Below are positions 10,962 to 35,229 of a stretch of 64,000 nt of DNA, in pieces. Both the position numbers and the translations under genes were made by a program. The notes under the pieces were generated by a model, which had not been told where the DNA came from, made no database searches, and worked only from the letters and a program-made list of their open reading frames with translations. Source of the stretch: a virus (taxonomy: Duplodnaviria > Caudoviricetes); IMG/VR virus record IMGVR_UViG_2675903036_000001, positions 22,710-86,709 of that record; one strand, written 5' to 3'. How positions within the stretch are numbered: the stretch's first letter is position 1; each line of letters begins with the position of its first letter.

Positions 10962-10989
10962 CTCAAGCAAAATAAAAAGGAAGAATAAG

Positions 10990-12473: not shown

Positions 12474-12486
12474 GGAGGGGATCAGC

Positions 12487-12980: not shown

Positions 12981-14720
12981 ATGAACGACACTCCCTCACA
13001 AGTAGCTTTCAACGAAGTAGCGCCACAAGATGAGCGCTATGACGCCCATGCAGAGTTACAAAAAAGTGCATTATCAGAATTAATTCCGCGCCCTGAGATA
13101 CAGCCGGTCATTGACTATATTCTTGATGACTTGGCTGAACAGGAAATGAGAAAGGCTTTAGCGAAGCCGAATATCATTCCTTTCCCTTCTAAAGCAGTCA
13201 AGAATAAGCAACCTGGCATGCAATCCGTGTATCTGGACGATATGCAGGTATCGGTCATGGGGCACTACTACGATAAGCCTGGCGTGTTCAGCTTCGACTC
13301 CATGCGTGCCATGGTCGAACAGACGCCGATACTCAATTCCGTGATCATGACACGTATCCGCCAGGTTCAGCGGTTCTGCAGGATACAGGAATCCGGTCGC
13401 GGGCCTGGCTTCGAGATCAAGCTCAAAGACCGTGAGGCAGAGGTAACGGATACCAACCGTCAATCCATCCAATTGATGCAGGATTTCATGCTTAACTGCG
13501 GGTGGGAAGCAAAACCACGCCAGAGAATGCGGCTTAAGCGCGACGATTTCACGTCATTCGTGGCCAAGCTGACTCGGGATAGTCTTACCATGGATTCAAT
13601 GGCTATCGAGACAGAATACAAGCGTGACAGAAAGCTTGGGATGGATGGATTGTATGCCGTGGATGGTTCCACGATCAGGCTTTGCACGGAAGATGGTTAT
13701 GAGGGCGATGACGAGATATTCGCGCTGCAGGTGGTGCAGGGGCGCATCCGTACTGCCTATACCTATGACGATCTGATCTATGTGCCGCGCAATCCGCGTA
13801 CGGATGTATTAACTGGTGGTTATGGTCTGGCTGAGACCGAGTTATTGATTCGCGTGGTCACGGGATTTTTAAACGCCATGACCTACAATCAGAAGTATTT
13901 CGATAGTAACGCGATTCCCAAAGGGCTGTTGCACTTATCCGGAAATTATTCCGAGAAAGACCTGTCGGCATTCAAGCGCTACTGGAATGCAATGGTGAAG
14001 GGTGTCAACAATGCCTGGACGTTGCCGGTCATGGTATCCAAGGATCAGGAATCCCGCGCGGCCTTCGAGCGCTTTGGTGTCGATGTCGATGAGATGATGT
14101 TCTCGAAATGGATGACATTCCTGGCATCGATCATCTGTGCCATTTACGGCATTTCTCCTGATGAGATTAATTTTGAGTCATTCAGCGCAAGCAAATCATC
14201 TCTTTCTGGCTCAGACACGTCTGAGAAGCTGGCAAATTCAAAAGACAGCGGCTTACGTCCACTTCTGACTTATCTGGAAAATATTTTCTCGGATTTCATT
14301 ATTCAGGATTTCAGCGAGCAATATGTGTTTCGCTGGACAGGGCTCGATGAGGAAGACGAAGAAAAGCGCCATGAAATTCGCAAGCTGGTACTCAAGGTCA
14401 ATGAAATACGCGCCCAAGAAGGTTACGACAAACTAAATGACAAATGGGGTGAGGCCCCTGTCAATCCTGCCTTGCTTGGCGCTTGGCAGTCCGAACAGCA
14501 ACAGAATGATCAAGATTTTGGTAACCCGGACGAGCAAGGCAGTAATTCTGACCAGGAAGATCAATCTGATTTTGGCGATGCAGGAGAGAATCAAGGCGAT
14601 CAGCAAGAAGCGGATTATGGCGATGCGGGTGATAACGATGATGAGACTGCAATCGAGTCCGATGATGAAGAAAATTTAGGAAAGTCTTTCGGTCTGCCTG
14701 TTTACACATTTGAAGTTTAG
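12981..14720 (+). CDS. portal protein
   Basis: NPRTDV..GYGLAE.E, YF...AIPKGLL, ICAIYGISPDEINF, VNEIRAQEG; acidic tail. Confidence 0.9.
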   Translation: MNDTPSQVAFNEVAPQDERYDAHAELQKSALSELIPRPEIQPVIDYILDDLAEQEMRKALAKPNIIPFPSKAVKNKQPGMQSVYLDDMQVSVMGHYYDKPGVFSFDSMRAMVEQTPILNSVIMTRIRQVQRFCRIQESGRGPGFEIKLKDREAEVTDTNRQSIQLMQDFMLNCGWEAKPRQRMRLKRDDFTSFVAKLTRDSLTMDSMAIETEYKRDRKLGMDGLYAVDGSTIRLCTEDGYEGDDEIFALQVVQGRIRTAYTYDDLIYVPRNPRTDVLTGGYGLAETELLIRVVTGFLNAMTYNQKYFDSNAIPKGLLHLSGNYSEKDLSAFKRYWNAMVKGVNNAWTLPVMVSKDQESRAAFERFGVDVDEMMFSKWMTFLASIICAIYGISPDEINFESFSASKSSLSGSDTSEKLANSKDSGLRPLLTYLENIFSDFIIQDFSEQYVFRWTGLDEEDEEKRHEIRKLVLKVNEIRAQEGYDKLNDKWGEAPVNPALLGAWQSEQQQNDQDFGNPDEQGSNSDQEDQSDFGDAGENQGDQQEADYGDAGDNDDETAIESDDEENLGKSFGLPVYTFEV

Positions 14721-14731
14721 CGGAGAAGTTA

Positions 14732-15025
14732 ATGGAGTCTCAAGAGCAGAGAGAGTTGCCGCGTTACAAAGGTCACAAAGAGGTTTGTGCTTTAAAAATT
14801 AAGAAAGTTATCAGAAACCAACAATCTTTTGCAATTACGTTAAGTTTTGAAGAGGAAGGCTATTCTGATCTAGCTGTCAGTGAGGAATGGTTGATCAGAC
14901 ATCGACCGCAAGCAGGAGGTTATTACGTTGTTTGCCAAGATGGATATGTGTCGTATTCGTCAGCCAAGGCATTTGAGGATGGCTATACGCTTATACGACC
15001 AGTGGGACCATTGGGGGTTGTTTGA
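14732..15025 (+). CDS. conserved small phage protein (GGYYVV..DGY.SYS...FEDGY type)
   Basis: GGAG RBS; recognisable phage motif. Confidence 0.65.
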   Translation: MESQEQRELPRYKGHKEVCALKIKKVIRNQQSFAITLSFEEEGYSDLAVSEEWLIRHRPQAGGYYVVCQDGYVSYSSAKAFEDGYTLIRPVGPLGVV

Positions 15026-16512
15026 AAAATCAGAAATTGCCTAGTAGAGCTATTGCTGGCGATGAAATCTTCTTCCATCACAAAGATGCGCCGTGCTGCG
15101 GAAAGGTATTGTCTGTCGGCAAGCATGGCGTGACGGTCGATCAGGAAGGGAAGCAGCATCGCGTCACGTGGGAGCGGGTGCTAGGACACAAGAAACGTAT
15201 ATCACCAAAACTAAAAATACTGCATGAAGGCGAGGACGGCATGATCGTAGAAGATGCTATGGGCAAGAAGCGCTTCGTGCATATTCCGTCAGATGCTAAA
15301 GAGGATCAATACATGGTTAAAGCATTGTCTGATAAACGGCTATTGTTGTTTACAAAGTCAGAGAAGATCGCTAATCGTGCAGGCCTTCACCTGGAAAACA
15401 GGACGGACCGTACAGGACGAAATCAAAAAAAATGGGTACGAAGTGGCCAGGATGAAACGAAAGGCGATAAACAAACCAAAACAAGTGAGTCTGAGCAAAA
15501 TAGCAGCCATGGGCAGACAGAATTTGGCGCACACAATATTAAAGCTGGGCAAAAAGTGCAATTCAAGCTGGGCGAGCTTGCTGGTGAAGGCAAAGTTGTT
15601 GGCAATCCGGGTGCTGATGGTGCGCATGTTAAGGATTCAAGCGGCCATATTCATCAGGTGCGCTGGGATCAGGTAACAGGGAATAGTTCGCATAATTCTG
15701 AGAGTGATAACAAAGGAGCTGGCGATGATCAGCAAGGCCAAAGCAAGCTATTTGATGACGAATTCGTTGCATCACTGCCTAGCATAGCAAAACAGCCACA
15801 TGATAACTGGGAAGACCTGGTTAAACATGGCAAGGAAGGTCTGGAGCAATTCAATGAGATGTTAGGCAAGGTCCAGCAGGTTATGGGATTGAAATCTGGA
15901 CACAATCCAGATGATATTACTGATGAGCAATGGGGGAATGACGACGGCTATCTATTCATTGCGCCTCTGAAAGGTGAGAAACGGGCAAGAGAAAAAGTAG
16001 AGGGAGATTATGATGGTGATTGGTCGCAATTGCGCGATGTGGTTAGGGCGACAATTAGTGTGCCTACTATGGCGCAAGTCAAGCAGGCCGTGGGACATTT
16101 GCATGATGTGGGTATTGATCTGGCGCAAAAACCGAAGAACAGGTTTGAGAAGTCTACGCATGAAGGTTATCGCGATTTAATGGCTATTGTTAAGCTGCCT
16201 AATGGTATGGTTGCAGAACTGCAAATTCATGTCAAAGCAATGACACAGGCAAAAAATCACGGGCATCACCATTATGGAATCACCCGCTCCTTGCAGACTA
16301 AATATAATGAAATCGAGCCTTCTGATAAATGGAGTGATGAGGATCATTCTGAATACTATAAAGCGATCAAGGCTCAACGTAACATATATTCCGAAGCTTG
16401 GAGAAAGGCTAATGGAGAGACTAAGAATCAATTGACAAAGGCATTCCTAGGTAGCACAATAATATTGCTGTTTAGGAAGAAGGAGGTGCCAAATGAACAT
16501 GATTTACATTGA
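15022..16512 (+). CDS. multidomain protein: two SH3-like repeats + RelA/SpoT-like nucleotidyltransferase (small alarmone synthetase-like)
   Basis: PLKGEKRAREKV, LRDVVRATI, KNRF, GYRDL, AELQIH motifs in the C-terminal half. Confidence 0.75.
   Translation: MKNQKLPSRAIAGDEIFFHHKDAPCCGKVLSVGKHGVTVDQEGKQHRVTWERVLGHKKRISPKLKILHEGEDGMIVEDAMGKKRFVHIPSDAKEDQYMVKALSDKRLLLFTKSEKIANRAGLHLENRTDRTGRNQKKWVRSGQDETKGDKQTKTSESEQNSSHGQTEFGAHNIKAGQKVQFKLGELAGEGKVVGNPGADGAHVKDSSGHIHQVRWDQVTGNSSHNSESDNKGAGDDQQGQSKLFDDEFVASLPSIAKQPHDNWEDLVKHGKEGLEQFNEMLGKVQQVMGLKSGHNPDDITDEQWGNDDGYLFIAPLKGEKRAREKVEGDYDGDWSQLRDVVRATISVPTMAQVKQAVGHLHDVGIDLAQKPKNRFEKSTHEGYRDLMAIVKLPNGMVAELQIHVKAMTQAKNHGHHHYGITRSLQTKYNEIEPSDKWSDEDHSEYYKAIKAQRNIYSEAWRKANGETKNQLTKAFLGSTIILLFRKKEVPNEHDLH
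16432..16460 (+). promoter_or_regulatory. internal sigma70 promoter TTGACA-17-CACAAT
   Basis: lies in the last codons of the synthetase gene, ~30 nt before AGGAGG-ATG of the 76-aa ORF. Confidence 0.6.
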
Positions 16513-16723
16513 GAATGAAGGCGCTTTGTATCGCGGACCAGCTAGGGGAGTTCCTAGGGAAATCTGGAACGCAAAAGAAAAGAAATTCGTGCCTTACAAG
16601 GGCGCTGTCCCTAAGCCAATTGAGTGGGGGTACGAAATTGATGAGGCAGAAGCGCGGGAAATGATGGGTATCGAGGAAGAAGGGAATGGGAAAAATGATC
16701 CTGTTCTTCAAGTCGCACATTAG
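16493..16723 (+). CDS. small acidic protein, candidate immunity/antitoxin
   Basis: AGGAGG RBS; overlaps both neighbours. Confidence 0.7.
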   Translation: MNMIYIENEGALYRGPARGVPREIWNAKEKKFVPYKGAVPKPIEWGYEIDEAEAREMMGIEEEGNGKNDPVLQVAH

Positions 16724-17267
16724 CGGCTACACCCGAGGTAATACCTACGTTCATGACCATTACCGTCGAGCTGCAAAATTTGCGGCTGCCAAGCATAAAG
16801 GCCAAACCCGCAAGGATGGCAAAACACCCTACATAACACACCCAGTCCAGGTGGCATCTATTCTGAGTAGAGAGGCCAAAGTAACCGATCCGGTTATCCT
16901 GTTAAGCGCATTACTACATGACACACTGGAAGATACCGACACCAGCTACGAGGAATTGGAAGCAGAGTTCGGCAACGAGGTTGCCAATCTGGTGCTGGAA
17001 GTGACCAATAATCCAAACCTATCCAAGCTGGATAGCAAAACAGAGCAAATTGCCAAGCCGTGGTCTCCAAAAGCTATCAGACTCAAGATGGCCGACAAGA
17101 CAGCTAACCTGCGAGATCTGGTTAATGCTCCGCCAGTTGGAATGTCAAAAGACAAAAAGATTGAATACGCCAATCATGCCAGAAAGGTGATTGAAGGCAT
17201 GAGAGAGCATCCAGAAGCGTTAAAACGATTATTCGATCTAGCCTACCAAATAGTTCTCAGTCACTAA
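16686..17267 (+). CDS. HD-domain (p)ppGpp hydrolase-like protein (Mesh1/SAH-like) with ILFFKS leader
   Basis: AAAKHKGQTRKDGKTPYITHP, ALLHDTLEDT, EVT, KMADKTANLRD. Confidence 0.9.
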   Translation: MGKMILFFKSHISGYTRGNTYVHDHYRRAAKFAAAKHKGQTRKDGKTPYITHPVQVASILSREAKVTDPVILLSALLHDTLEDTDTSYEELEAEFGNEVANLVLEVTNNPNLSKLDSKTEQIAKPWSPKAIRLKMADKTANLRDLVNAPPVGMSKDKKIEYANHARKVIEGMREHPEALKRLFDLAYQIVLSH

Positions 17268-17533
17268 ACTGCTTCATTCCATAGCGGTATGGTGTCGTAA
17301 CGTACCATAATTATCTTCGACAACCTGGGCAAAACTTTTTGCTGCTAAGTATTGTCTTATTAATTACTCCGAGCGTGTGTGTGGGGTGCTTCAAAAAACA
17401 TCACGCAGCTGGTGAGCAGATCTCCTTTTGCAGAGTTACCCATCCTCTGTTTCTTGCGTGAGCCAGTCGATTCCGTGCGTTAGTCGGCGATTCTATTTTT
17501 GCAAGCTGAGAAACCGGCTGCAACTATTGTATG

Positions 17534-17548
17534 TCGTGACCTGACAAT
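17534..17548 (+). promoter_or_regulatory. putative late promoter TCGTGA-cct-GACAAT, ATG 7 nt downstream
   Basis: repeated motif. Confidence 0.7.
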
Positions 17549-17555
17549 ATGTGTC

Positions 17556-18716
17556 ATGACAACGCTTCTAATCGATATAGGCCCATTGAGCGAACATCAA
17601 TCAGATGAAGCGCTAGAGGCAATCTACAAATCAGTCCACGATCATGGCGGTGATGATTCTATCTGGAATACGCATGAATCCCCATATATCAGACGATTAA
17701 TCGAGTTATTTACCGAACGAGGATTAACTCGTCTCGAAAAGGTAAGGACAGAGTTAACTGCGTGGGCTAAAGGTGAAAAACACCGTAAAGATAGTCCTGT
17801 TCCAAGGCCGGAGGGCATGATACGCCGGTGGGACAAAGGCGAGCTTGCATTGGTCAAGCTCTATCTTGAAGCCTTGCCACCGGAGCAATTCACCCTGGAT
17901 GATTGGGGAATGGTCGTTGATTTTTTGGTGCAGCGTTATCTGCCGGAAGATGAATTGCGTACCGAAGCAGAATGGCTGGCAACGCGATCAGGATTAATGG
18001 GCAAGGTGCAAGCAAACATGCAAAAGTCACCAAACTTGAAGCAGGCAGACAGGTTGCTGGCAGCTATGCCCAATACCGTCAAGGGTGCGTCCAAGCAATT
18101 CAAACTATCATCCGTGCAACATGCGGTACTGGACTTTGGGCGTGCGCGTGCAGCCGAAGCAGTGACAAGGCTATCTGACAACGTGCGTCACAAAATGCGT
18201 GATGTGATCATGCAGCATGAAGAACAGAAGATGCTCAATGGTGGAGCAGCTACGCCGGGGTCAGCCCTAAAAACGCGATTGTTAGATGAATTTGCCGTAT
18301 TGAACAGAGATTGGCGGCGTATTGCGTTGACAGAAGCAGGGGAAACCGCCAATCAAGGTTTTATTTCCAGTATGAAGCCTGGCAGCAAATTGAGGCGCGT
18401 TGAACAATACGCGAATGCCTGTTCTTTCTGCAGGAAGATTGATGGCGCCATTGTAGAGGTTGTGGAGCCTTCGAAGCCATTAAAGAATCCCGATACGATG
18501 GTTTGGCTTGGAAAAACCAATGTGGGGCGTTCATTGTCACCACACAAGCGCGTGGGAGGTGAATTAATCGAGCGCTTGCCGGAAGAACGCTGGTGGATTG
18601 CGGCAGGTGTACAGCATCCGCACTGCCGTGGACAGTGGATAAAATTACCTGAATCAAGACCAGAAGACGATCCTGATTTTGCTGAATGGCTAAGAAGAAC
18701 GTTGGAGCAGATATGA
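17556..18716 (+). CDS. MuF/SPP1 gp7-like head morphogenesis protein
   Basis: RIALTE, ACSFC, QHPHCRG; ATG at 17556 preferred. Confidence 0.75.
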   Translation: MTTLLIDIGPLSEHQSDEALEAIYKSVHDHGGDDSIWNTHESPYIRRLIELFTERGLTRLEKVRTELTAWAKGEKHRKDSPVPRPEGMIRRWDKGELALVKLYLEALPPEQFTLDDWGMVVDFLVQRYLPEDELRTEAEWLATRSGLMGKVQANMQKSPNLKQADRLLAAMPNTVKGASKQFKLSSVQHAVLDFGRARAAEAVTRLSDNVRHKMRDVIMQHEEQKMLNGGAATPGSALKTRLLDEFAVLNRDWRRIALTEAGETANQGFISSMKPGSKLRRVEQYANACSFCRKIDGAIVEVVEPSKPLKNPDTMVWLGKTNVGRSLSPHKRVGGELIERLPEERWWIAAGVQHPHCRGQWIKLPESRPEDDPDFAEWLRRTLEQI

Positions 18717-19291
18717 TACTTTTCTTGAAAGCTCACCCTATTAATCAGGCCATTTCACGTAGCACGTCAGCAAGCAAATTGAATGATAATGGAATCCGTC
18801 GCAATCCTGGCGAACCATCACCAGAGGCTGCTAAGGAAGGAAACTATAAAAAGCCGGTGATGAAGTGGCGTGGTCTGACCATTCGTATCGAGAATCCTGC
18901 CGGTTCCGTGCGTCGAGGGAATGGGTGGGAAACCAGAATGAAATATGACTATGGTTATATATCCGGTTCAAACGGGGTCGATGGCGACGAAGTAGATGTG
19001 TATATTGGCCCAAATCTCGATGTCACTGAAATGGTTTACGTTGTGCATCAGCGTAAATATGGGGACTGGAACAAGTACGACGAAGATAAATGCTTGATCG
19101 GATTTATGAGTGAGGATGAAGCCAAGGCAGCTTACCTTGCGCATTACGATGATCCACGCTTTCTAGGGCCGATAACAGCATTGCCGGTTGAGGAATTTAT
19201 CGAAAAGGTCAAAGCGACAAGAGAACAGTCTGGAATGATCAAATCGATGATTCTATTCTTCAAAGCCAACGTCAATCGGTGCTCGATTTAA
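18713..19291 (+). CDS. inorganic-pyrophosphatase-like (InPase) domain protein with ILFLKA leader
   Basis: IENPAGSVR, YDYGYI.G..GVDGDEVDVYIG, VVHQ, DEDKCLIGF; ATGA-coupled to MuF. Confidence 0.75.
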   Translation: MILFLKAHPINQAISRSTSASKLNDNGIRRNPGEPSPEAAKEGNYKKPVMKWRGLTIRIENPAGSVRRGNGWETRMKYDYGYISGSNGVDGDEVDVYIGPNLDVTEMVYVVHQRKYGDWNKYDEDKCLIGFMSEDEAKAAYLAHYDDPRFLGPITALPVEEFIEKVKATREQSGMIKSMILFFKANVNRCSI

Positions 19292-19399: not shown

Positions 19400-22300
19400 A
19401 TGTTGATTCTTTTCCTGAAAGCAGAACAGCAATCACTGCTGTTTGACGCTCCTGTATTAGTGCAGGGGTCAGTCCGTAAAGACGGAAGTGTAGTAAAACC
19501 GCACGTGCGGATTCAAAAAAAGAAACTGCCTGATTCTGGCGGTACACAGGGGAATTTATTTGGTGATAATTCCACTGAACAATCGAAAAAACCCTCAAAG
19601 TTAGACGCATTCATTGCCAAGCAAGGCGGAATGCAGTCTCTTGCGTCCAAGCTATCAATGCTGACTGAAGGTCAGCAGCAGACCATCTTTGAAAAGATGG
19701 CGGCGCTGGATGGAAAGAACGTCAAAGAAGTAGCTGCGATGTTTGACGGCTTTTCTGTCAGTGAGATCGAACAGAAGCAGCCGGATTTGTTCACATTGCA
19801 ACATGAAGCGGTAAAGGAAGCAAACAAAGAAGAGTTTGCGGAAGAGGACAAAGCTCCACAGATTATCAATCATCTTGACCCACTTGAATTTGGCGTTAAA
19901 GCCGGTATCACCAAGTCAGAACGGCGCAAACTCAATGCACAGGCCGTAGCTATCGTCACAGACAAAACTTCATCGGATATCACTGAAGACGACCGTGCGA
20001 TCCTGCGTCAGTATTCCGGCAATGGTGGCTGTGGTGATTCGCTCAATGAATTCTATACCGATCCGGCAGTTGCGCTTGCCATGTGGAAAGTCGCGGAAAA
20101 GCTGGGTATTACTCACGGTACAGCCTTGGAGCCTTCATGTGGATCGGGCGTATTCCTGCACACTGCGCCTGCTGGATTCAAGGTTACTGGCGTTGAATTG
20201 GAAAGCATCTCTGCCAAGATGGCCGAAGCATTACATGGTGAACGGCATGAAATCGTGAATGCTTCGCTGGAGCGATTTGCTACTCAGGATACGCGACGAT
20301 TTGATATCGTAATCGGCAATCCCCCCTATGGGCCGCGCGGCATGCTTGCCAGGGATGACAAGAAAGAGCTGTCCAAAGCGGAAGAGTATTTCATTGATAC
20401 CAGTCTGGACAAGACCCGTGCAGATGGACTATGCATGCTGGTAGTGCCAAGCGGCATTATGGGTAGCAAGAATGGCCGCAAATTCAGGGAGCGCATGCTG
20501 AGAAAAGCGGAGTTCCTGGGCGCTCAGCGATTGCCTAACAGTGCATTCGAGGCAAGTCATACCGATGTGACGACCGACATTATTTACCTTCGCAAAAGGC
20601 CGGATGATATAGCAGGCGCATTATGCGTTGTGGATAAGAAAGCTCTGCAAGCGCTTGGTGTGTGGGATGATGAATTTCTGGCAGGAAAATACTTCGAAGG
20701 ACGAGGGAAAGCCAGCGTGTTTGGCGAGGTGGGCACTGCCAAGCGTGCGTTCGGTGAAATTTATACCGTAAATGGGACAATGCGCGGCGTGCCATTTTTG
20801 ATCGAGGAATTCAATCCTCATTCACAAACGGTTACGCCGTCGATTAATGACATTCTGTCGGTATTACCGGATCAAGCGGCCAAGGATAAAGCGCTCAATG
20901 CAGCTGAAAAGCAACCATATCAGAATGGCGCCAAGGTAGGTGATATCAAGGTTGAGGATGGCGTGACCTATGTGCTGCAGGGTAATCCACCACGTTGGCA
21001 TCGGGTGGATGATGCGATGCAATCCGAAGCTGTTACCCAAGCGCAAGCATTGGCATCTGAAATTGATCGTCTTATGGACGGCGAGGTGGCAGACCGGGCT
21101 GCGCTCGAGCAATCCCTCCGTGACTGGGTGGCGCGGCACGGCATACCGGCCAAGCATCCAGAGCTGTTAATCGCAGCAGCCCAGGATAAAACGCTTTATC
21201 GGTTAATCGGTGCGGTAGGCAAGGACGGCAGATTGTCCGATGCGGTGATGGGCAGAGCCGCGCGCAGAATAGAGGGTGGATTCGATGCAGTAGCACAATC
21301 ATTGGCGTTGACGCATGAGTCTGGTGATTTCTCGGTTGCTGAATTAGCCGAAGCGCTAGACAGAGATCAGGACGATATCCTGGATCAGCTGACTGCGGAT
21401 CATCGTTATGCATATGTCGATGGCGATAGATGGTCTACTATGGATACTTACCTGACAGGTCATCTATGGTCTAAACTTGATCAAGTCAAGAGCCAGCTTG
21501 CCAGCAATGAATTAGTCATGGTTATGCGTTCAAAGCTGGAAAATCAGCAAAAGAGACTTGAAGAAACCATCGATCCAAAATCACTGGAAGATGTGGAAAT
21601 TCAGTTAAACAGCGCATTCATTCCCCTAAGCATTCTGGAAGCATGGATTGACGATAAGGCTGACAGATTACGCGAGTCCAACCCCGGTTCAGGCTGGTAT
21701 CAAAACCTTAAGCAAGCTTCCATCACTTTTGAGAATGGCATTTACACCATAGGCAAAGGTACGGCGATCAATGAATCCTTGCTCGATAAATACTTGAATC
21801 GAACGGGCGTCAGAAAGGACGATTTGCCGACAATTGATGAATGGAACGAAGCATTCAAAAATTGGCTATGCGCATCAGAGTATCGAGACGCAGTAGAGGA
21901 TTTATATAACCGTAAATTCCGTGGCTTCGTGCATCGAGAATTCACCGATGAACCGATTGATGTGCCTGGATTGGCCAATCAAGACCAACTAAAACGTTAC
22001 CAATGGCCGGGGCTGAAATGGGCGTTATCGGTCGGTAAAGGGATTATTGCGGATGATGTTGGATTAGGGAAGACCGTAAAGGGCCTGTTGCTCGCACGAT
22101 TGGCCAAGCTTACCGGCAAGGCGCATAAGCCGATGATCATGGTTCCTAAGTCAGTATTAGCTAACTGGTACGTGGAGTCTCAAAAATGGTTCCCCGGTTC
22201 CAAGGTGCTTACCATAGGCGGTGATTTCTCCTATAACGACAAAGGTGAATTAGTCGGGCGTGACGATAATAAGAACGAGCGTGAACGCAAATATCATGAT

Positions 22301-25300
22301 CTGACGCAAAACGATTATGATTTCGTAATCATATCTGAGCCGGTCTTTCAGGAAATAGACCTTGATCCGGTGACGAAGAAAGAAATGTATGACACTGATT
22401 TCTGGGTGCAGCGTGGTGATTCGCTTGGCAATGCAGGGGATAAGCGCGTCAAGAAAATTCGAGAAGCCTACGAGCAGTCTATTGCAAAACGTGAATTCGA
22501 AGACAGAACGGGCGTGATCTACTTTAATGATCTTGGTGTGGACATGATCATTGCAGATGAAGCGCATCACACAAAAAACCTCTATGCCGCAAAATCGCGT
22601 TTTGGCGACAATCCCAAGTTCCTGGGTGGACAAGGACTATCAAACCGTGCGTTGGATTTCAATCTGAAAGCACGTTGGTTATTGGGACAAAACGGCGGTA
22701 AAGGCGTATATGGATTGACGGCCACACCGACCAAAAATAGCCCCCTGGAAATCTATTCGATGTTGTCGCATATCGCACCAGAAGCGTTTGAAAGCATCGG
22801 TATCCGTAACAGCGAGGAATTTCTTGATCGATTCTGCAAGTTCGAGCGTGATAACGTGCTGGGAACCAACGGCGAGATTGATGAAGCGCTGGTGGTGGCG
22901 GGTTTCAAAAACATGGAAGAACTGCGCACGCTCATGAGCCAATATGTCAGGAGGACAACCGCAGAGGATGTCGGATTGATATTGCCGAAACGCGACGACC
23001 GCATGCATCTGATCGACATGACGCCTGAACAACAGGCGGTTTATGTGGAATTGCGCGACATGGCTGCCGAAGCTGCTAAAAAGGATGCTACCGGTGATGC
23101 GCATATCTTCAGTGTCATGGACAAAATGAACAAAGCGGCGCTTGACCTGGAAATATACGATCCGGTTACCTATCAAGGTACCAGCAGTCCAAAATACGAG
23201 GCATTGTCCAAGCACGTGGCGGAGGGCGTCAAGGATGGCGGGCAGGTGATTTTTGCCGATTACGTGGATGCGCACGACAAGATTGTGAAAGCGCTCGTAA
23301 AGGCAGGCATACCCAAAAACCAGATTGGCATTATCAATGCACAGGTGGCATCCAGCGCGGTGAAACGGCAAAACATCGCCGATCAGTTCAATGCAGGCAA
23401 ATTGAAGGTGGTAATCGGCAATACTGCAACCATGGGTGAGGGAATCAATTTGCAGAAAGGCACTACTGATATTCATCACATGGATCTGCCGTGGGAACCG
23501 GCCAGCATTCAACAGCGCAACGGTCGCGGATTGCGGCAAGGCAATATTAAAGAAGCGGTGAGGATACACACCTATCTGTCGAAAGGATCATTCGATGGTT
23601 ATCGTTATCAGTCAATCGGCGCAAAAAAAGACTGGCAAGACCTGTTGTGGAAAGGCGGGGATACTATTGAAAATCTGTCCCGGGAGGGCAACATCAGCCG
23701 TGATGAAATGCTGATCATGCTGTCCGCCGATCCGGACGCGGCGCGCGCTAGATTCGATTCTGACAAGAAAGCGGCTCTAGAGCGGCATGAAGCAGGAGAG
23801 CGCGCAAAAGCTTCTGAAGAATTCGTGCGCTTCCAGTCACTGAGAGCAAGCTACCAGTCGCTCAAGGACAAGAACACCACAAGCGCGGCTTTGTTGCAAT
23901 CCAAGCTGGAGAAAGCTAAAACCGCTCTGAGAGGCAATCGCTTCTTTACGGGTAAGTCATTGATCGATTCCGCTACCGATGCGCTCATGGAGCCCAAGAC
24001 CGGCCTGGTATTGCATGCCAATGTGGCGTTTCATGCAGTAGATGAAAAAGGTGAGAACGAGGGTAAATTTGTGGTGACCGGCGTCAATCTGAAGGAAAAA
24101 ACGGTGACGGTGAGACCGTATGCGGATATCAATGGTCGCAAGAAGGCTGTCAAATTGTCAGATCTGAATCATGGTATTAAGCCTTTTGCATTCAATGAGG
24201 ATAGCGAAGCTAAAGAGCTGGCTGCGAAGATGGAATCCGATGCAGCGAATAAAGCCAACAATATTACGGATTACAAACAGTTATCGGAGTTGCCATCAAG
24301 GGTTCTGCGTGAATCGCATGACGCCATACAGCAACAGCTTAAGGAAGGGGCAAGATCATACAAGATTTCGTTCCACGCTGGTAAAGTGCCGATGGTTCAT
24401 CGTGAGAGTGGAGGGATTGATTTGGTTAATAACTACTCAATCCGTGACAAGCTGGATAGTCATGATTTCCTGCTGCCGACCGATGACGCCAGGAAGAAAC
24501 TGGCAGACGCCTGGCTGGATGAAGAGCGCAATGTCAGGTTTGGAACTACTTTTGTTAAAACAGGGAGAAGAGGTTCATCATCCTCTCAGACGCATGCTGT
24601 CAGGGAGTATCAGAATGCGGATTACAGCAGCAAACAACATAACCCTTGGTCTGAGCATGTAGCATCCGCGAATGGCGAGAAACATTCGTATTACGAGGAT
24701 GAATATGGCGCCAGTACGCCATCCATCAAGGCATTACGCGAGAGGCTGAAAAAAGAACAGATTGATCGCGCTAAGAAAGCCACTACATTAACGGATACAA
24801 TCAATATCCTTGCGCCATTGGGCGCAGTGCAAGACAAGGTGAAGGGATATGGCGCAAAAGTTAAGCTGCCCAGAAAAGCATTAGCGATCCTGTGGGCCAA
24901 GGCGAGGCATTTGGGCGTGCTGGGCGAGAAATTGGACGATCATCTGCCAGGGGAAGAAAAGAATTACGGGAAGTATGAAAAACATTCCAGTTATTTCCAT
25001 GGATCAAGAAAAGATAAAACGGTGCATGCTGCATTGATTGGCATGGCGAAAGATGCCGGATATGACGACCTCGCTGCGGCAATGATTGAGTCTGGTCTGC
25101 GTCACCATAAGAAATCTGATCACAAAGAGGTGTTGAGCGAGTTGCACCAAGACTACGGTCACAGCGATCAAGTGCTTAAAATGATGCTTAAATTAGCGGA
25201 AGCATCGGGCATTGCTGACATGAAAGCGGTTAATGCGGAAACAGGCATTCAGAATGCTGGCATACTGCGGCCTAGACAATGGGGTGGCGATGAGCATAAA

Positions 25301-25342
25301 ACGATACGAGAAATAATACAGGAGCGTATGAAGAATGGTTGA
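19400..25342 (+). CDS. DarB-like giant protein: N6-adenine methyltransferase + SNF2-type SF2 helicase
   Basis: LEPSCGSG, IGNPPY, DVGLGKT, DEAH, TATP, GEGINLQ, QRNGRGLRQG. Confidence 0.9.
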   Translation: MLILFLKAEQQSLLFDAPVLVQGSVRKDGSVVKPHVRIQKKKLPDSGGTQGNLFGDNSTEQSKKPSKLDAFIAKQGGMQSLASKLSMLTEGQQQTIFEKMAALDGKNVKEVAAMFDGFSVSEIEQKQPDLFTLQHEAVKEANKEEFAEEDKAPQIINHLDPLEFGVKAGITKSERRKLNAQAVAIVTDKTSSDITEDDRAILRQYSGNGGCGDSLNEFYTDPAVALAMWKVAEKLGITHGTALEPSCGSGVFLHTAPAGFKVTGVELESISAKMAEALHGERHEIVNASLERFATQDTRRFDIVIGNPPYGPRGMLARDDKKELSKAEEYFIDTSLDKTRADGLCMLVVPSGIMGSKNGRKFRERMLRKAEFLGAQRLPNSAFEASHTDVTTDIIYLRKRPDDIAGALCVVDKKALQALGVWDDEFLAGKYFEGRGKASVFGEVGTAKRAFGEIYTVNGTMRGVPFLIEEFNPHSQTVTPSINDILSVLPDQAAKDKALNAAEKQPYQNGAKVGDIKVEDGVTYVLQGNPPRWHRVDDAMQSEAVTQAQALASEIDRLMDGEVADRAALEQSLRDWVARHGIPAKHPELLIAAAQDKTLYRLIGAVGKDGRLSDAVMGRAARRIEGGFDAVAQSLALTHESGDFSVAELAEALDRDQDDILDQLTADHRYAYVDGDRWSTMDTYLTGHLWSKLDQVKSQLASNELVMVMRSKLENQQKRLEETIDPKSLEDVEIQLNSAFIPLSILEAWIDDKADRLRESNPGSGWYQNLKQASITFENGIYTIGKGTAINESLLDKYLNRTGVRKDDLPTIDEWNEAFKNWLCASEYRDAVEDLYNRKFRGFVHREFTDEPIDVPGLANQDQLKRYQWPGLKWALSVGKGIIADDVGLGKTVKGLLLARLAKLTGKAHKPMIMVPKSVLANWYVESQKWFPGSKVLTIGGDFSYNDKGELVGRDDNKNERERKYHDLTQNDYDFVIISEPVFQEIDLDPVTKKEMYDTDFWVQRGDSLGNAGDKRVKKIREAYEQSIAKREFEDRTGVIYFNDLGVDMIIADEAHHTKNLYAAKSRFGDNPKFLGGQGLSNRALDFNLKARWLLGQNGGKGVYGLTATPTKNSPLEIYSMLSHIAPEAFESIGIRNSEEFLDRFCKFERDNVLGTNGEIDEALVVAGFKNMEELRTLMSQYVRRTTAEDVGLILPKRDDRMHLIDMTPEQQAVYVELRDMAAEAAKKDATGDAHIFSVMDKMNKAALDLEIYDPVTYQGTSSPKYEALSKHVAEGVKDGGQVIFADYVDAHDKIVKALVKAGIPKNQIGIINAQVASSAVKRQNIADQFNAGKLKVVIGNTATMGEGINLQKGTTDIHHMDLPWEPASIQQRNGRGLRQGNIKEAVRIHTYLSKGSFDGYRYQSIGAKKDWQDLLWKGGDTIENLSREGNISRDEMLIMLSADPDAARARFDSDKKAALERHEAGERAKASEEFVRFQSLRASYQSLKDKNTTSAALLQSKLEKAKTALRGNRFFTGKSLIDSATDALMEPKTGLVLHANVAFHAVDEKGENEGKFVVTGVNLKEKTVTVRPYADINGRKKAVKLSDLNHGIKPFAFNEDSEAKELAAKMESDAANKANNITDYKQLSELPSRVLRESHDAIQQQLKEGARSYKISFHAGKVPMVHRESGGIDLVNNYSIRDKLDSHDFLLPTDDARKKLADAWLDEERNVRFGTTFVKTGRRGSSSSQTHAVREYQNADYSSKQHNPWSEHVASANGEKHSYYEDEYGASTPSIKALRERLKKEQIDRAKKATTLTDTINILAPLGAVQDKVKGYGAKVKLPRKALAILWAKARHLGVLGEKLDDHLPGEEKNYGKYEKHSSYFHGSRKDKTVHAALIGMAKDAGYDDLAAAMIESGLRHHKKSDHKEVLSELHQDYGHSDQVLKMMLKLAEASGIADMKAVNAETGIQNAGILRPRQWGGDEHKTIREIIQERMKNG

Positions 25343-25661
25343 TCCTAAGACCTTTGCGGAATCAACTCTACAATTATTGCAGCAAGACCCGAGGCGATAC
25401 CATAATTTCGGGGTGTACTGGTATTTCGTCAAGGCGCTCATGAAGCGGTATTACACCAAAGATAATCTGCATCTCCTTGGCGAGTATATGGATGCTGACA
25501 CCATGGCGAGAATGCCTGAGCACGCTACTTTGCAGGAAGCAATAGAAGCGGCTATCGAGGAATACCGGCATAATGCCAGCTTCAACCTTGGTCGCTCGAC
25601 CGTCGAGGATTTAACAGGTGGCGGTGTGCTTGACCTGCATGATGAGGATGCTGGCGTCTAA
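25335..25661 (+). CDS. hypothetical protein overlapping the end of the DarB-like gene
   Basis: 108 aa; overlap with the upstream stop. Confidence 0.65.
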   Translation: MVDPKTFAESTLQLLQQDPRRYHNFGVYWYFVKALMKRYYTKDNLHLLGEYMDADTMARMPEHATLQEAIEAAIEEYRHNASFNLGRSTVEDLTGGGVLDLHDEDAGV

Positions 25662-27901: not shown

Positions 27902-30900
27902 ATGAGGCCAATCTTATTTATCAAATCAGCTCCCCTCAAATGGAATGAATCCGATCACTCGCGCAATGAAAAGGGTGAGTTTGCGCATAAACCATCCATG
28001 CATGTTGAGTCAAGCGCCGGAATCGAATCATTTGAACAGGCAAGAGCGTGGTGGCGTAAAAATCTCGGTGGAAAGGTGGCCGACCTGACGGTTCATCTTT
28101 CGCGTTCCGGCGACGGATGGAAAAAAACAATAAAGATCAAGGTTGATTTCCCGTCCAATGAAACCCACGCTTTTACTGAAAAATCAGATCCTGGCGTAAA
28201 CCCAGATTGTTACGATAATCCAAAAAAACGTTTGCATCCGAGATCATTTATTCGTGAACGCGCGATATTAATGGATCGCATTGCTAGGACAATCGAGTTT
28301 CCACAAACGAAAGCCATTCATTATGGCGCTGACCTGTTATTCGAGCGCGTTTATGGAGGCAAGCACCTTGTGGTTGCTTTGACGTGGAGTCAAGCACGCG
28401 GTTTATATGTGTTTGATTCCGCGTATGCGATGTCGGCAGACAAAGTAAAGAAAATCTTGAGCAGTCAAGACCGCACAAAAAACAACGGCCCACTTCAAAA
28501 AAGTGAGCCATTTGGATCGGCGCCTTCGGTCTTTCGGGACTCTACTGAATCCGGGAGTTACCCCACCGGCAGTAAACCTGTGGTATCAGAACCCATCGGC
28601 TTCCGTCGCTGCTGCACAGATACTATAGTTGACTTTCTAACGACGGTCAACGCCGATTTGGTGAAGTCGATTCCGGCGGGTGCGCGCTGGATCACGGTTC
28701 ACCCTAATGGCAAGGACGCAAAAGGCCAGCCATTGCTTGTTCAGGAGGAATCAGACGGTTCGATGCGCGTCATTGGTGGCGCTGGCGGCAAGCTTAATTA
28801 CCTGAAATTGCGCCATGTCCGCTCTGAGTCCGATTACAAGAAAGAGGCTGGTGAGCGCAGAAAGGCGCAAGCTGAGAAAAGAAAAGAACAGCGAAAAAAG
28901 GATAAAGAGCTTGGTATAAGCGAATCCAAGGGCCGAGCGCGAGAAGCTATTGTTGCTCAACGCAGGGGCGCGGAAAGAGAGTACATCCAGTCTGTCTCTC
29001 AAGCAATGGGCTGGGAGCAATCATCAATCGAATTCCCGGAGCATAAATACGGCCATTTGTCGGATGCCGCCGTCAACAAGCTACGCGGCAAGCACCATAG
29101 AAACTTACTGGAAAAAGCCAAGCAAGCAGTCGAGCTGCAGCGTCAAAAGTTGCTGTCGAGTGAAGAGGCGAGATTGTCTGCCGGGATAGGCGAAGTGCCT
29201 CTTGATACGCAGGATGATGATAGTCTGTCGGTTGATGATCTTAAACCCATCCCAAGTCAGAATGGAGGTCTTGGATATAGCTCTGATTATAAAGGTCGCG
29301 CTGAACGTGCCGGGCTGACTGAGGAAGACTTGAAAGCTGAGTCAAGCGCCATCCGCTCAGAAAAGCTTGCGCAAATGACTGACGCGCAACGGCAGGCGGC
29401 AATCAGGCTAGGTGAAACATCCAGGCTGCTGAAGCAGGAACTGGAAAATATCCGGGAGCCGGTTGTATCGAACGCGGTGAGTGTAATGGAAGATGCCAAA
29501 GCTGCGGTCGAATTACTCAAGGCAGAAAAGAAGCTGAAGGCCATTAACCAGCAAGCAAAAATGAAGCTGGCTGAAGTGGATGAGGCCAGTGCAAAGGTAG
29601 AGCCAAAGGCGTTTGTGCTTGAGTATGCGGCTGACCCTGATATAGAAAAGAAAATCGCGGAAGATATCGAAAACGATCTGCGCACTGCGCAAACACGCAC
29701 ATTTTTGACGGAATTTCAGCGGTTAGCCGGTGATAAGCCGGAGGAAACCGTTGGAAAATATATGGGTATCGGTGCTTATAACAGCATTAATTCCCTGGCG
29801 CTTGCTGTGGGTGGTGATGCTTTGGTAGATCGCTCAGTGGTAGATGTGCTGGGTATAGCCGGTGCAGCGCAGGTGCTGGCGAGGCGAGTCCATGCCGATC
29901 TGAAGGAGGATGTAGATCGGATTGCTGAGGGCATGCAGGAGTTTCACCTTCACCACTACATGACAACCAGCGATCAGGCACTTAATCAAGCACGTGAATT
30001 GATGGATGTGGCGCGTGAAATTGAGATAGGTGAGGGTGCAACAGGGGCTGATCTTAATACCGCACAAGAGCTCAATGCCAAGCGCCGGGCTGCGGTGACT
30101 GATGCGCAAAAGATCATCGGGCAAGCATTAGGAGAAATGGAGGCCAATGCTGCTCTGGTGATGGCGCTGAAGCAAGGCGCAAAAGATTTGGTGCAGGTAC
30201 CATTAGGCAATCTATCTGTCGAAAGTGCAATTGTGCGCGCTAGGGCAATCGGATTGCAGCGTGGGGATTATCAAATTGACGATTCTGCAGGGCAAACCTT
30301 CCTGACCGTCAATGCAAGCGGTATGGATAGATTAGCCAAGCCGGTTAATCGCGAAGATGTAGAGCAGATTAAACATAATCTCTCGATCATGCGTGGCGAT
30401 CACGATGAAGATGATTGGCTGCCGTTGGGTGTTGCCAACAGACCAGATTTGGCGATAAATGTTAATCCGGGCATTGCGCCAAGGTTAGCTGACCCATTTC
30501 AACCAAGCGAAGACCCGGAACAATCACTGCGAGATTATATCGGTGGACGCACGGCTGATGGCGATACGCCTGCCGATATCCTGGCTGACATTCAATCGCT
30601 GGATTTCTTCCGGAAAGCAGGTAGTGATGAAGCGTACAGAGCTGCGCTAGATGCTGTTGCACCATTAAAGGATCAAGATGGAAAAATACAACGAGCTGAA
30701 TCACTCTCTGACCATTTCGAGCAATATGCAGACCAATTTGTACAATCCAGATACGGTGGATCAAGATCCCCGATCAACCGTCAAAAGTTTGAAATTAACC
30801 AAAAATCAGTTGATGCACTCCATCGCGCATTGTCAGAGGCACCGGAGGGTGTGGCGGCATATAAGCAGATAGGCGAGTTGACCCATACTGATCAAAGGAC

Positions 30901-33646: not shown

Positions 33647-34567
33647 ATGAACGACGCGGAGATACTTGCAGCGACACCAGATTACATAAGCATCGGGAGC
33701 ATGCTCAAGGCAACTCCTGCGATGGAGTCTGGGCAGCGTCTGATTTATCTGGAAGCTAGCAACGAGGCGCTTGACCAGCAGAATGAAGTGGTTCTGCAGA
33801 AAGCGCTCAAGGATAGCGCGGACTGGTTTCTGCGCTACGGAAATCTGGATATCGACCATTTCAGTTTGATCGGCAAGCCCAATCCGGCCAAAGGGTATGC
33901 AGGCATACCGGATTATCAGAACTACGAGATTGGTAGACCGCTTGATGTCCGCTTTGATGGTGCCAAGACATTTGTTAAAGGCGAGATTTATTCTGGTCAA
34001 GGTGCTGCTGCTGAACAGGCCAATCAATTCTGGGAAAGCTTGACTGAAATACAGCCTCCAGCCAGATGGTATCCATCCGTAGGTGGAAGCATCATGGAAA
34101 AAGCTGTTGAGCTGGATGCCAATACACAAGCGCGCAAAACTGTTATCAGAAAAGTGCGCTGGTCTAATATCGGTTTTAGCAAAACGCCAGTCAATCCAGC
34201 GGTTCCCACAGTGGCCACCGTTCCCATAGGTGTGCTCGTCAAGAGCTGGGGGGCATCCGGTCTTGATATCGCCAAGGCATTGGAAGCAGGTTACGGCACG
34301 GATTCCGCTCAATTGTCGGGCGGCGCGGCATTGCGCAAGCAATCCCTGCATGGCAATCCCATTGGATATTTTGAATTACGCAATCGCTTATCGGAGGCTT
34401 TGCATAAAGGCAGTCTCGGTAAGAACCCAGGCATACGTGACCTGATTGCGCATTGCACGCAGAAGTTCGGGTTGTCTCGGGACGAGGCCGCCGAATGTGT
34501 TGAGCGCTTCATGCGCGATTTAAAACGTGGGTTGAAAAATCGCCAGGCAATCAGGTCGGGCGGGTAA
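33647..34567 (+). CDS. prohead protease
   Basis: EASNEALDQQNEVV, GNLDIDH, YPSVGG, TPVNP; located before scaffold and capsid. Confidence 0.75.
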   Translation: MNDAEILAATPDYISIGSMLKATPAMESGQRLIYLEASNEALDQQNEVVLQKALKDSADWFLRYGNLDIDHFSLIGKPNPAKGYAGIPDYQNYEIGRPLDVRFDGAKTFVKGEIYSGQGAAAEQANQFWESLTEIQPPARWYPSVGGSIMEKAVELDANTQARKTVIRKVRWSNIGFSKTPVNPAVPTVATVPIGVLVKSWGASGLDIAKALEAGYGTDSAQLSGGAALRKQSLHGNPIGYFELRNRLSEALHKGSLGKNPGIRDLIAHCTQKFGLSRDEAAECVERFMRDLKRGLKNRQAIRSGG

Positions 34568-34578
34568 TAAACGGAGAT

Positions 34579-35229
34579 ATGGAGAAAATTATGAGCTTTG
34601 AAAAACTGTTAGACGAACTCGAAACCATGAGCAAGGCCATGCCATCCGACGACACTGGCGAGGATGATAAAAAGATCCAAGCTGCGGCGGCTGAAGGTGG
34701 TGAAGGCGATGTGAGTGATGAGAATGAAAATGTCGATGGAAATGAAGAAGAAAGCGACGACGATCCAAGTGACGATGAAGTGGAAGTTGGAGATGAAAAC
34801 ATGACCAAATCATTTCAATTCACCCTTGATAGCGGAGAAATCATTGAAGCGCAAGACGGAACCAAGCTGGTTAAGTCGTTGATGAATCGTATCGAGAAGA
34901 ATGAAGGAACGTTGACTAAAGCGCTTGGCACTGCGGTCACGCTCATCAAATCACAGGGAGACATGATTAAGTCTCTACAGGAAAAGATCGGCCAATTGTC
35001 CGGTCAGGGGCGCGGACGCAAGGCGGTTGTTAGCGTCGTGGAGAAGCAGCCTACTGCTCTGGTCAAGTCTGCTCAGGAAGAAGGCATGTCTTCAAATGAA
35101 TTCATGACAAAGGCGTTGAGTGCGCAAGCTTCCGGAAAAATAACCGGCAATGACGTGGCTCGCGCGGAAGCGTATCTGAACAAGGGCATGCCGATTCCGT
35201 CGGACATCGTTAGCAGAGTAATCAGCTAA
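34579..35229 (+). CDS. capsid scaffold protein
   Basis: acidic stretch + coiled coil; eight [LM]-x-K-[SA] motifs; position. Confidence 0.7.
   Translation: MEKIMSFEKLLDELETMSKAMPSDDTGEDDKKIQAAAAEGGEGDVSDENENVDGNEEESDDDPSDDEVEVGDENMTKSFQFTLDSGEIIEAQDGTKLVKSLMNRIEKNEGTLTKALGTAVTLIKSQGDMIKSLQEKIGQLSGQGRGRKAVVSVVEKQPTALVKSAQEEGMSSNEFMTKALSAQASGKITGNDVARAEAYLNKGMPIPSDIVSRVIS

Follow-up and report, generated by a model that had tools for sequence, protein, structure and literature searches.

Why would a phage keep, inside the operon that builds its head, one enzyme that probably makes an alarmone and, right behind it, another that would destroy one? This question is raised by a 64,000-nucleotide stretch of viral DNA (positions 22,710 to 86,709 of IMG/VR record IMGVR_UViG_2675903036_000001; hereafter, the window), which is the last 64 kb of an 86.7-kb record with an estimated completeness of 95%. 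Here, one strand (+, as for all features below unless marked otherwise, with coordinates being those of the window) carries genes for a 496-amino acid (aa) synthetase protein (15022-16512), a 76-aa protein (16493-16723), and a 193-aa hydrolase (16686-17267), a trio that lies between the portal gene and the genes for a MuF-like protein, the head maturation protease, the scaffold, and the major head protein. An earlier, sequence-only reading of the window had described the three as a RelA/SpoT-like synthetase, an acidic open reading frame (ORF), and a Mesh1-like HD hydrolase with overlapping ends, and this description is confirmed by Pfam, profile, and structure-model analyses, as well as by the overlaps themselves (20 nt between the first and second genes, and 38 nt between the second and third, or 29 nt with the ATG at 16695 as start). 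That the genes follow the portal in the head module is likewise real and conserved, with one 97-aa ORF in between. On balance, we think it likely that the locus encodes a packaged and injected polymorphic effector with a (p)ppApp synthetase head, accompanied by a small immunity protein and a hydrolase that serves as further immunity.

In the synthetase protein, residues 245-465 (15754..16416) are a RelA/SpoT-homolog (RSH) synthetase domain by sequence, fold, and motifs. Within this region, the Pfam family RelA_SpoT (PF04607) gives a sub-threshold match at residues 325-417 (25.2 bits, E 2.1e-5), one relative (L037) scores 29.4 bits to PF04607, and many other homologs match the family as well. 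Homologs at E≤0.001 numbered 191 among 3806 candidates, and PHROGs has no family for the protein. A 40-member family profile run against the PDB retrieved Tas1 (6ox6_A) at E 1.7e-10, with RelA next at 0.0038. The AlphaFold model, built on the 40-homolog alignment, is confident at residues 10-90, 120-140, 170-222, and 245-465, with a predicted local distance difference test (pLDDT) score of 95-98 over the last of these, and is disordered at residues 94-115, 143-165, 224-239, and 470-477. When searched with Foldseek, this model ranked Tas1 first (1.3e-7), followed closely by the RelQ/RelP small alarmone synthetases and Rel; there were 68 matches at E≤0.001, and all those listed are RSH synthetases. 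By profile and by fold alike, Tas1 is the closest solved relative of the domain. Moreover, the residues invariant across the 40 sequences (Lys317, Lys325, Asp339, Arg342, Gly382, Tyr383, Glu399, Gln401, and His415) align with the motifs of Tas1 and RelA (basic residues, D..R, GY, E.Q, and H..Y), which we take to be the ATP/nucleotide-binding, Mg, acceptor, and catalytic motifs. The ORF has a TTG start that overlaps the stop of the 97-aa ORF, and it holds one enzymatic domain, as opposed to the two or more unrelated effector domains per polypeptide by which a polyvalent protein is defined. Fused relatives do occur, such as the 928-aa P0156 with an ART-PolyVal domain (PF18760) and BFVD matches of more than 1000 aa; a dedicated search for longer fusions yielded only one protein, and a search of the ESM Atlas added only unnamed or partly RelA_SpoT clusters. 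The nearest named homologs come from Nitrosomonas assemblies, which hints at a possible host.

The remainder of the protein is what ties the enzyme to the phage head. It begins with a conserved post-portal carrier domain made up of small β domains (residues 1-97; 15022..15312), which is delimited by the alignment and modeled with a pLDDT of ~80-95 for residues 10-90. This is followed by a disordered, leader-like linker, MVKA...LLLFTKS (residues 98-113; 15313..15360), that contains two hydrophobic-x-K-[S/A] sites, and then by a β hairpin and a second SH3-like barrel (residues 120-222; 15379..15687; model strands E122-140 and E178-221). The linker lysine (Lys112) is conserved in at least 90% of the 40 sequences, and the pLDDT at residues 94-115 falls below 50. 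At the other end is the C-terminal tail LTKA...IILLFRKK (16432..16482; pLDDT <50 at residues 470-477), a type of ending also found on the Zeta-head carriers described below and on an InPase-domain protein encoded further along. No match of the carrier to PAAR or MuF, the delivery domains of Apk1 and Apk2, respectively, was obtained with Pfam (including PF04233 and PF06152) or NCBIfam, and its N-terminus is all-β; hence, the carrier of the synthetase is a non-MuF one. In a scan of viral contigs that covered 79 loci, the post-portal gene starts with the N-terminal carrier domain in every locus holding both genes. The domain is found as a stand-alone protein (100-250 aa, and 100-135 aa in some relatives), as a fusion to a MuF-like body (L077 and L020), or with one of two long heads, and all six of the non-synthetase long heads tested are Zeta-toxin domains. 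Mapped on a portal tree of 50 rows, in which two 'none' labels (L062 and L068) stem from loci cut by contig ends, the head label changes at least 15 times, and the portal nearest to that of the window (70% identity) belongs to a Zeta-head phage. In one lineage, the synthetase domain is attached to the portal itself: an 866-aa protein (L031:4045-6645) consists of a Phage_portal_3 portal (245 bits) and, at its C-terminus, a synthetase domain with 45% identity to that of the window by blastp (tblastn E 2e-47), and downstream of it neither the small ORF nor the hydrolase was detected by hidden Markov model (HMM) or blast.

Do the neighboring genes follow the head? We counted them in 36 distinct carriers that had 400 nt or more of downstream sequence, duplicates having been removed and six others dropped for contig ends. 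Among the 25 synthetase-head loci, a small ORF of the 76-aa type (type A) is present in 24, the hydrolase in 19, and a second small ORF of 55-62 aa (type B) in none, whereas the 11 Zeta-head loci have type A once, the hydrolase never, and type B nine times. With relatedness ignored, the Fisher p values are 4.6e-7, 2.1e-5, and 5.8e-7 for type A, hydrolase, and type B, respectively. Two loci depart from the pattern in their own ways. In L033, which has a Zeta head, type B is followed by an orphan type A ORF (L033:7557-7948; 66% identical to that of the window), and this arrangement would fit the orphan immunity genes left behind when a toxin head is swapped. L047, with a synthetase head, has no type A by HMM and instead has an 86-aa ORF of unassigned type. 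Head-specific small ORFs and hydrolase, combined with head swapping, are the hallmark of a polymorphic toxin accompanied by cognate immunity genes, and as far as sequence comparison tells, a conserved N-terminal carrier with a swappable C-terminal head follows polymorphic toxin-immunity logic. The expectation that a toxic synthetase is offset by an adjacent protein and a hydrolase is supported both by this head-specific co-occurrence and by the published precedent of Apk2-BcTis1-Aph1, to which we return below. Since synthetase and Zeta heads are exchanged, each with its own small ORF, phage polymorphic toxins extend beyond the MuF carrier.

As for the 76-aa protein, it is encoded behind a strong AAGGAGGT ribosome-binding site directly after the synthetase head, to which it is specific, and is a candidate for the cognate, non-enzymatic (structural) immunity protein of the synthetase. 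It has a pI of 4.96 (14 acidic versus 10 basic residues) and lacks the leader motif. There are 33 close homologs, and 309 representative clusters at E≤0.001, and no family was found for it in Pfam, PHROG, NCBIfam, or PADLOC. Its model has five strands and a helix (pLDDT ~80 for residues 1-60), and a comparison by VIA-align placed Tis1 (6ox6_B) at rank 2 of 48,161, albeit weakly (Z 3.3, rmsd of 3.9 Å with 57 residues aligned and 18% identity). We treat this likeness to Tis1 as a lead suggested by the model; homology to Tis1 at the sequence level was also considered and is not supported. In a separate observation, one 1353-aa protein (P0261) has eight matched stretches of the 76-aa ORF domain and several proteins of ~140-150 aa have two, and so the domain also occurs as tandem arrays.

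The third gene encodes what is clearly, from its sequence, a Mesh1-like small alarmone hydrolase. It matches HD_4 with 65.3 bits (cut-off of 27.2), human MESH1/HDDC3 with E 1e-36, and Drosophila Mesh1 with 3e-32, and the catalytic H, HD, ED, and D..N residues are aligned; NCBIfam recognizes a RelA/SpoT hydrolase region in this HD protein and nothing else. Bacterial small alarmone hydrolases are matched at ~1e-16, and Aph1 (7smg) at E 2.3e-7 (33.9 bits), far below MESH1. Judging from the start site of its relatives, translation probably begins at ATG 16695, in which case the protein opens with the leader, MILFFKS, followed by GYTR...V..H.R, and a leader is present at the N-terminus of 15 of the 18 distinct hydrolase homologs. 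Such a tag would be needless for a purely intracellular antidote, and one can ask whether the hydrolase is mainly an independent, injected counter-defense enzyme directed at host toxic small alarmone synthetases (toxSASs) in abortive infection or at the stringent response. In the account of Jimmy et al. (2020; PMC7229694), human MESH1 and stand-alone phage hydrolases neutralize all toxSAS toxins tested, and a bypass of alarmone-based defense is proposed. What speaks against this as the main role is that the hydrolase accompanies 19 of 25 synthetase heads and none of the 11 Zeta heads, and thus its presence depends on the synthetase. We consider counter-defense as the principal function possible but doubtful, with the remark that antidote and counter-defense roles are not mutually exclusive.

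The leader connects the hydrolase to other presumptive cargo. A six-frame pattern search of the 64 kb gave nine matches, of which six are in frame within genes of the head module: at the N-termini of the hydrolase and of a DarB-like protein (which starts MLILFLKA), at both the N-terminus (18713) and C-terminus (19247) of the InPase-domain protein, and at internal and C-terminal positions in the synthetase protein. A seventh copy is found in a 1757-aa helicase, whose probable start is MRPILFIKS. The copies in the synthetase protein are LLLFTKS (residues 107-113) and a degenerate IILLFRK near the C-terminus. The claim of the sequence-only reading that both enzymes carry the leader therefore holds for the hydrolase N-terminus, and for the synthetase only in the form of these internal and C-terminal copies. 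Recurrence of the motif exceeds chance. Moreover, the copies differ in their codons, which places the conservation at the protein level and rules out a DNA repeat. In relatives, the full element consists of five hydrophobic residues and K-[A/S], often followed by x-V-x-G-Y-T-R-x-D-G-x-x-V-x-x-H-x-R. Of 27 distinct InPase ORFs, 17 have it ahead of the InPase domain (printed strings read by eye), and in fusions it also separates InPase from the module that follows, while carrier proteins of any head type end in L-x-K-[S/A] and a hydrophobic tail. The motif was not found described in the main text of PMC5512222 (by a search for text terms) or in a search of the open literature. A kinship with the N-termini of P1 DarB (residues 1-50, compared by eye) or DdrB was tried and dropped, as there is no likeness.

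What the leader does may be gathered from its invariable part, hydrophobic-x-K-[S/A]. In comparison with 300 shuffles of each protein, the scaffold of the window has eight such sites against 0.82 expected (about ten-fold; none of the 300 shuffles reaches eight) and the protease has five against 0.77 (six- to seven-fold), and the same is observed in Bordetella phage PHB04, the nearest named relative, with seven against 0.75 in the scaffold and five against 0.77 in the protease. Counts for the InPase-domain and synthetase proteins of the window are three against 0.51 and four against 1.39, and most tail and other proteins are at expectation. On account of this enrichment in scaffold and protease, the hydrophobic-x-K-[S/A] end of the leader is probably a maturation-protease site. 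The major head protein has one such site at residue 30, with DLQK|ALEAGYGTD as the candidate cleavage, and the motif-bearing segments of the synthetase protein are the disordered ones with a pLDDT <50. [quoted passage not shown] The PHB04 protease has the same feature, which may be a common cleavage or docking element.

Were the motif instead only an inter-domain linker and protease site inherited from polyprotein-like polyvalent ancestors, with no part in capsid targeting, then loading would depend on other contacts, for instance binding of the portal by the carrier or by the MuF-like protein. Such an origin would account for the copies between fused modules and at C-termini, as well as for a synthetase that has a portal-linked carrier but no N-terminal copy; the capsid-targeting signal of P1 DarB, described as proven for its first 30 residues (Gonzales et al., 2022; PMC9024508), is also unlike the motif in sequence. 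On the other hand, four unrelated cargo-type proteins start exactly with it, and we regard the linker explanation as open to considerable doubt. A hydrophobic strand beside a cleavage site has, besides, a parallel in T4, where short capsid-targeting sequences are cleaved by the prohead protease. If the leader is indeed a tag, then injected proteins could be listed from sequence, and a route for loading foreign proteins into these capsids would be at hand.

Returning to the packaged effector, we infer virion delivery of the carrier-synthetase and hydrolase from the leader shared by the hydrolase, InPase, DarB-like, and helicase proteins, from the carrier fusions to a MuF-like body (L077 and L020), and from the portal fusion in L031. 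As we envision it, the effector would combine the conserved carrier, disordered linkers, and a Tas1/Apk-like synthetase that pyrophosphorylates adenine nucleotides to (p)ppApp and so drains ATP. In the cell that builds the virion, the 76-aa protein would bind the enzyme and keep it inactive, with the hydrolase acting as a second, enzymatic immunity that strips the 3'-pyrophosphate from any alarmone that escapes. The leader would serve as a maturation-protease site together with a hydrophobic docking strand, or in other words as a capsid-targeting tag clipped after loading. Carrier-synthetase and hydrolase would be loaded into the procapsid and exit with the DNA, as would the InPase, DarB-like, and helicase proteins. 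The untagged small immunity protein would stay behind, leaving the enzyme free in the next host, where the co-delivered hydrolase could limit or time its effect.

A bolder version, which we put forward only tentatively, is that each infection opens with a self-limiting alarmone and ATP-drain pulse, delivered by means of a portable load-and-clip tag and swappable toxin heads with their immunity genes. Synthetase and hydrolase would be packaged next to InPase, such that ATP is turned into pppApp and then back into ATP and pyrophosphate, which is split to two phosphates, and host metabolism or ATP-dependent defenses would stall until control passes to phage genes. The tag read by the maturation protease would be the ~25-residue element (hydrophobic x5)-K-[A/S]-x-V-x-G-Y-T-R-x-D-G-x-x-V-x-x-H-x-R; if true, injected cargo could be predicted from sequence across the phage group. 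This futile cycle is speculative, because InPase is not tied to the synthetase. A shared pyrophosphate chemistry had been suggested at the outset, and it is not supported: InPase genes also lie beside Zeta-head and headless carriers, an occurrence that rules out InPase as a specific synthetase partner and marks it, by gene context, as general cargo.

Which product the synthetase would make is a separate matter. From profile and model, the domain is a probable (p)ppApp maker of the Tas1/Apk type. It could alternatively pyrophosphorylate tRNA at its 3' CCA end, as in the FaRel2/CapRel/PhRel type, or make (p)ppGpp that reprograms host transcription. One fold serves all three chemistries, with RelQ/RelP and Rel being close behind Tas1 in the Foldseek ranking; furthermore, an alarmone-like shutdown is suggested for polyvalent RelA/SpoT domains by Iyer et al. 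(PMC5512222), and the partner hydrolase does not discriminate, given that Mesh1-type hydrolases counter all toxSAS classes (PMC7229694). However, in the family profile search, Tas1 is favored by seven orders of magnitude above every (p)ppGpp synthetase. In addition, Dominguez-Molina et al. (2024; PMC11782079) report that (pp)pApp producers are paired with Tis1-type domains, which block them at the acceptor site, and that tRNA-targeting toxSASs are neutralized by antitoxins of the pseudo-Zn-finger type that have a YXXY motif, and Tis1 is the only antitoxin-type structure, weak as the match is, in the fold list of the 76-aa protein. A tRNA- or (p)ppGpp-directed enzyme is consequently unlikely in our view.

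Less likely still is that nothing is packaged and that the trio is a prophage toxin-antitoxin or superinfection-exclusion module (like Phrann gp29/gp30) or an interbacterial weapon released by lysis: a tyrosine recombinase gene does make lysogeny likely, PhRel/gp29 is described as acting from a prophage against superinfection (PMC7229694), and virion carriage of MuF toxins is left open by Ahmad et al. (PMC10083569), but the synthetase is fused to a domain that comes after the portal gene in every carrier locus with a portal on the contig, that domain is also fused to a MuF-like body, one lineage fuses the synthetase to the portal itself, no promoter- or terminator-like sites in excess of shuffles set the trio apart, and the N-terminal element of the hydrolase is the same as that of the DarB-like protein.

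Several points nonetheless weigh against delivery of a (p)ppApp-making effector. There is no obvious benefit for a phage in injecting an ATP-draining enzyme into its own new host, and the open-access literature search found no virion proteomics for this phage group, with no mass spectrometry in a paper that mentions PHB04. The synthetase protein is without an N-terminal leader and starts with a different, conserved domain, and the leader is absent from three divergent hydrolase homologs (L020, L024, and L047). Hydrophobic-x-K-[S/A] is a short, low-information pattern whose cleavage is deduced from enrichment, and the linkage counts are not phylogenetically independent. With respect to the enzyme, its RelA_SpoT score is under the Pfam cut-off of 27 bits, and some relatives of this fold have other chemistries, namely tRNA pyrophosphorylation and (p)ppGpp synthesis. 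As for the 76-aa protein, its fold match with Tis1 is tied with Sm/SH3-like barrels, PDB searches with 36- and 78-member family profiles (E up to 10) returned only noise and no Tis1, and Foldseek gave no matches to its model.

The wider setting of the trio is the head operon of a probably temperate phage of ~87 kb that is related to Bordetella phage vB_BbrM_PHB04 (Phabquatrovirus), the closest named relative, to which parts of its portal region are ~69% identical in DNA sequence. Temperate life is made probable by the tyrosine recombinase/integrase gene of the record, located outside the window (G000:C1:5198-5710; 397-aa frame; 63 bits, above the cut-off). The gene order of PHB04 is the same: its portal gene is followed by those for a 'hypothetical' of 493 aa, a 69-aa product, and a 'metal-dependent phosphohydrolase', then by genes for MuF-like and InPase-type proteins, a methyltransferase-helicase of the DarB-like kind, Ulx, and another giant helicase. 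In PHB04 numbering, gp35 is the portal, gp34 the synthetase protein, gp33 the small ORF, gp32 the hydrolase, gp28 the InPase, and gp27 the DarB-like protein. PADLOC returned no matches. Internal promoters or terminators that would separate the trio from the operon were considered and dropped, as none of the sites delimiting it exceeded shuffle expectation. The portal protein of the window (12981..14720) matches Pfam Phage_portal with 72.5 bits as well as PHROG portal families, and its C-terminus reads LGKS and then a hydrophobic tail, with a hydrophobic-x-K-S site at residue 566. Between portal and carrier, the 97-aa ORF (14732..15025) belongs to PHROG phrog_11049, of unknown function, and is not at the equivalent place in PHB04.

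Downstream of the hydrolase, the MuF-like minor head protein (17499..18716) carries a C..C...HPHCRG motif and has a weak family assignment: the window protein has no Pfam match and no PHROG family, and 3 of its 24 homologs weakly match PF06152 (Phage_min_cap2; best E 6.5e-4). One of the 24 homologs (probably L043:9189-11396) matches Hint/PT-HINT and homing-endonuclease-like families, and this 735-aa ORF exceeds its relatives by ~350 aa, a sign that this minor head protein gene may hold an intein. Next come the InPase-domain protein (18713..19291; PF18823, 148.4 bits), whose ATG at 18713 forms an ATGA overlap with the stop of the MuF-like gene, the DarB-like methyltransferase-helicase giant (19400..25342; PHROG DarB-like/DNA methyltransferase; Pfam N6_Mtase, Eco57I, SNF2, and Helicase_C), a Ulx-like anti-restriction protein (25335..25661; phrog_1629, E 5e-15), and the second giant helicase of 1757 aa (27902..33175; Pfam ResIII, SNF2, and Helicase_C). 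The module continues with the head maturation protease (33647..34567; phrog_1028), the probable scaffold (34579..35229), with the hydrophobic-x-K-[S/A] enrichment given above, and the major head protein (35275..36735; phrog_752, E 5e-88). Several further observations concern the surroundings of these genes. Upstream of the head module, a 372-aa ORF (10948-12066) begins like a lipoprotein at its N-terminus and, by eye, contains Sel1-like repeats. Directly 5' of the portal gene are two overlapping small ORFs of 103 and 146 aa (12162-12927), the second with a helix-turn-helix-like stretch by eye, and the two could form a pair of the toxin-antitoxin kind. Between the hydrolase and MuF-like genes (17268-17498) is a 232-nt gap that holds no long ORF, and at the equivalent place PHB04 has a gene for a NinI-like Ser/Thr phosphatase, which in L030 is further downstream. 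Lastly, between Ulx and the second helicase, the opposite strand (26240-27817, -) encodes a 525-aa ORF with a Lipase_3 (class-3 lipase) domain (E 5e-9) and no PHROG family.

How does this locus compare with systems already known? Its arrangement, once regarded as unusual, is less so in light of published work, as both RelA/SpoT domains in head-associated phage effectors (PMC5512222) and MuF-fused (p)ppApp toxins with two immunity genes (PMC10083569) are in print. The closest counterpart, described by Ahmad et al. (2023; PMC10083569), is the Apk2 (BcTas1)-BcTis1-Aph1 trio of a temperate Bacteroides caccae phage, which comprises a MuF-fused Tas1 homolog, a Tis1-like gene, and a hydrolase of the HD type. 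According to that report, Apk2tox is toxic, makes pApp, ppApp, and pppApp, and lowers ATP; BcTis1 and Aph1 each protect partially and together fully; Apk2-type loci always have the tis1-like gene and sometimes the hydrolase gene; and the question of whether phage-encoded (p)ppApp MuF toxins are carried in the virion and injected is left open. Like the Apk2 trio, the one described here places a Tas1-like C-terminal synthetase on a head-associated carrier, with a small immunity gene and then an HD-type hydrolase behind it, and in both the small gene is always or nearly always present and the hydrolase variably so (here, in 24 and 19 of 25 loci). In contrast, the carrier here is non-MuF, with a separate MuF-like gene, the hydrolase is Mesh1-like instead of Aph1-like and shares its leader with other cargo, no link of the small protein to Tis1 is detectable from sequence, and sister phages bear a Zeta toxin as the alternative head.

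Other likenesses are more partial. In the FaRel-ATfaRel-AT2faRel module (Jimmy et al., 2020; PMC7229694; Dominguez-Molina et al., 2024; PMC11782079), a (pp)pApp-producing toxic alarmone synthetase is countered, as is proposed here, by a hydrolase antitoxin and a small antitoxin, the latter (AT2faRel) having Tis1-like and pseudo-Zn-finger domains; unlike here, the operon is chromosomal, with no head-protein fusion and no late-operon context. Tas1-Tis1 of Pseudomonas aeruginosa (PDB ID: 6ox6) provides the closest solved relative of our synthetase domain, but Tas1 has a PAAR delivery domain, is secreted by the type VI secretion system, and lacks a hydrolase partner. The MuF polymorphic toxins described by Jamet et al. 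(2017; PMC5576092) have in common with the window a post-portal gene with a fixed N-terminus, a variable C-terminal toxin, a small downstream ORF, and a temperate phage as source, whereas the N-terminal domain is non-MuF here and a 97-aa ORF intervenes after the portal; the word 'Zeta' does not occur in the main text of that paper. Finally, Iyer et al. (2017; PMC5512222) predicted packaging and injection for a set of polyvalent-protein domains that includes RelA/SpoT and InPase. With these polyvalent proteins and the P1 Dar system, the window shares a repertoire of RelA/SpoT, InPase, a DarB-like methylase-helicase, and Ulx in one head module, except that most of the modules here are genes in their own right, each of them bearing a copy of a shared leader that has no sequence resemblance to the N-terminal capsid-targeting signal of P1 DarB. 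Handles on the virion-delivery question are now provided by the cultured PHB04 with the same genes, the portal fusion, the tagged hydrolase, and a candidate cleavage motif that can be checked by mass spectrometry. Overall, this kind of system is already in print, and what sets the present one apart is the non-MuF, portal-linked carrier, the Zeta alternative, the tagged hydrolase, and the portal fusion.

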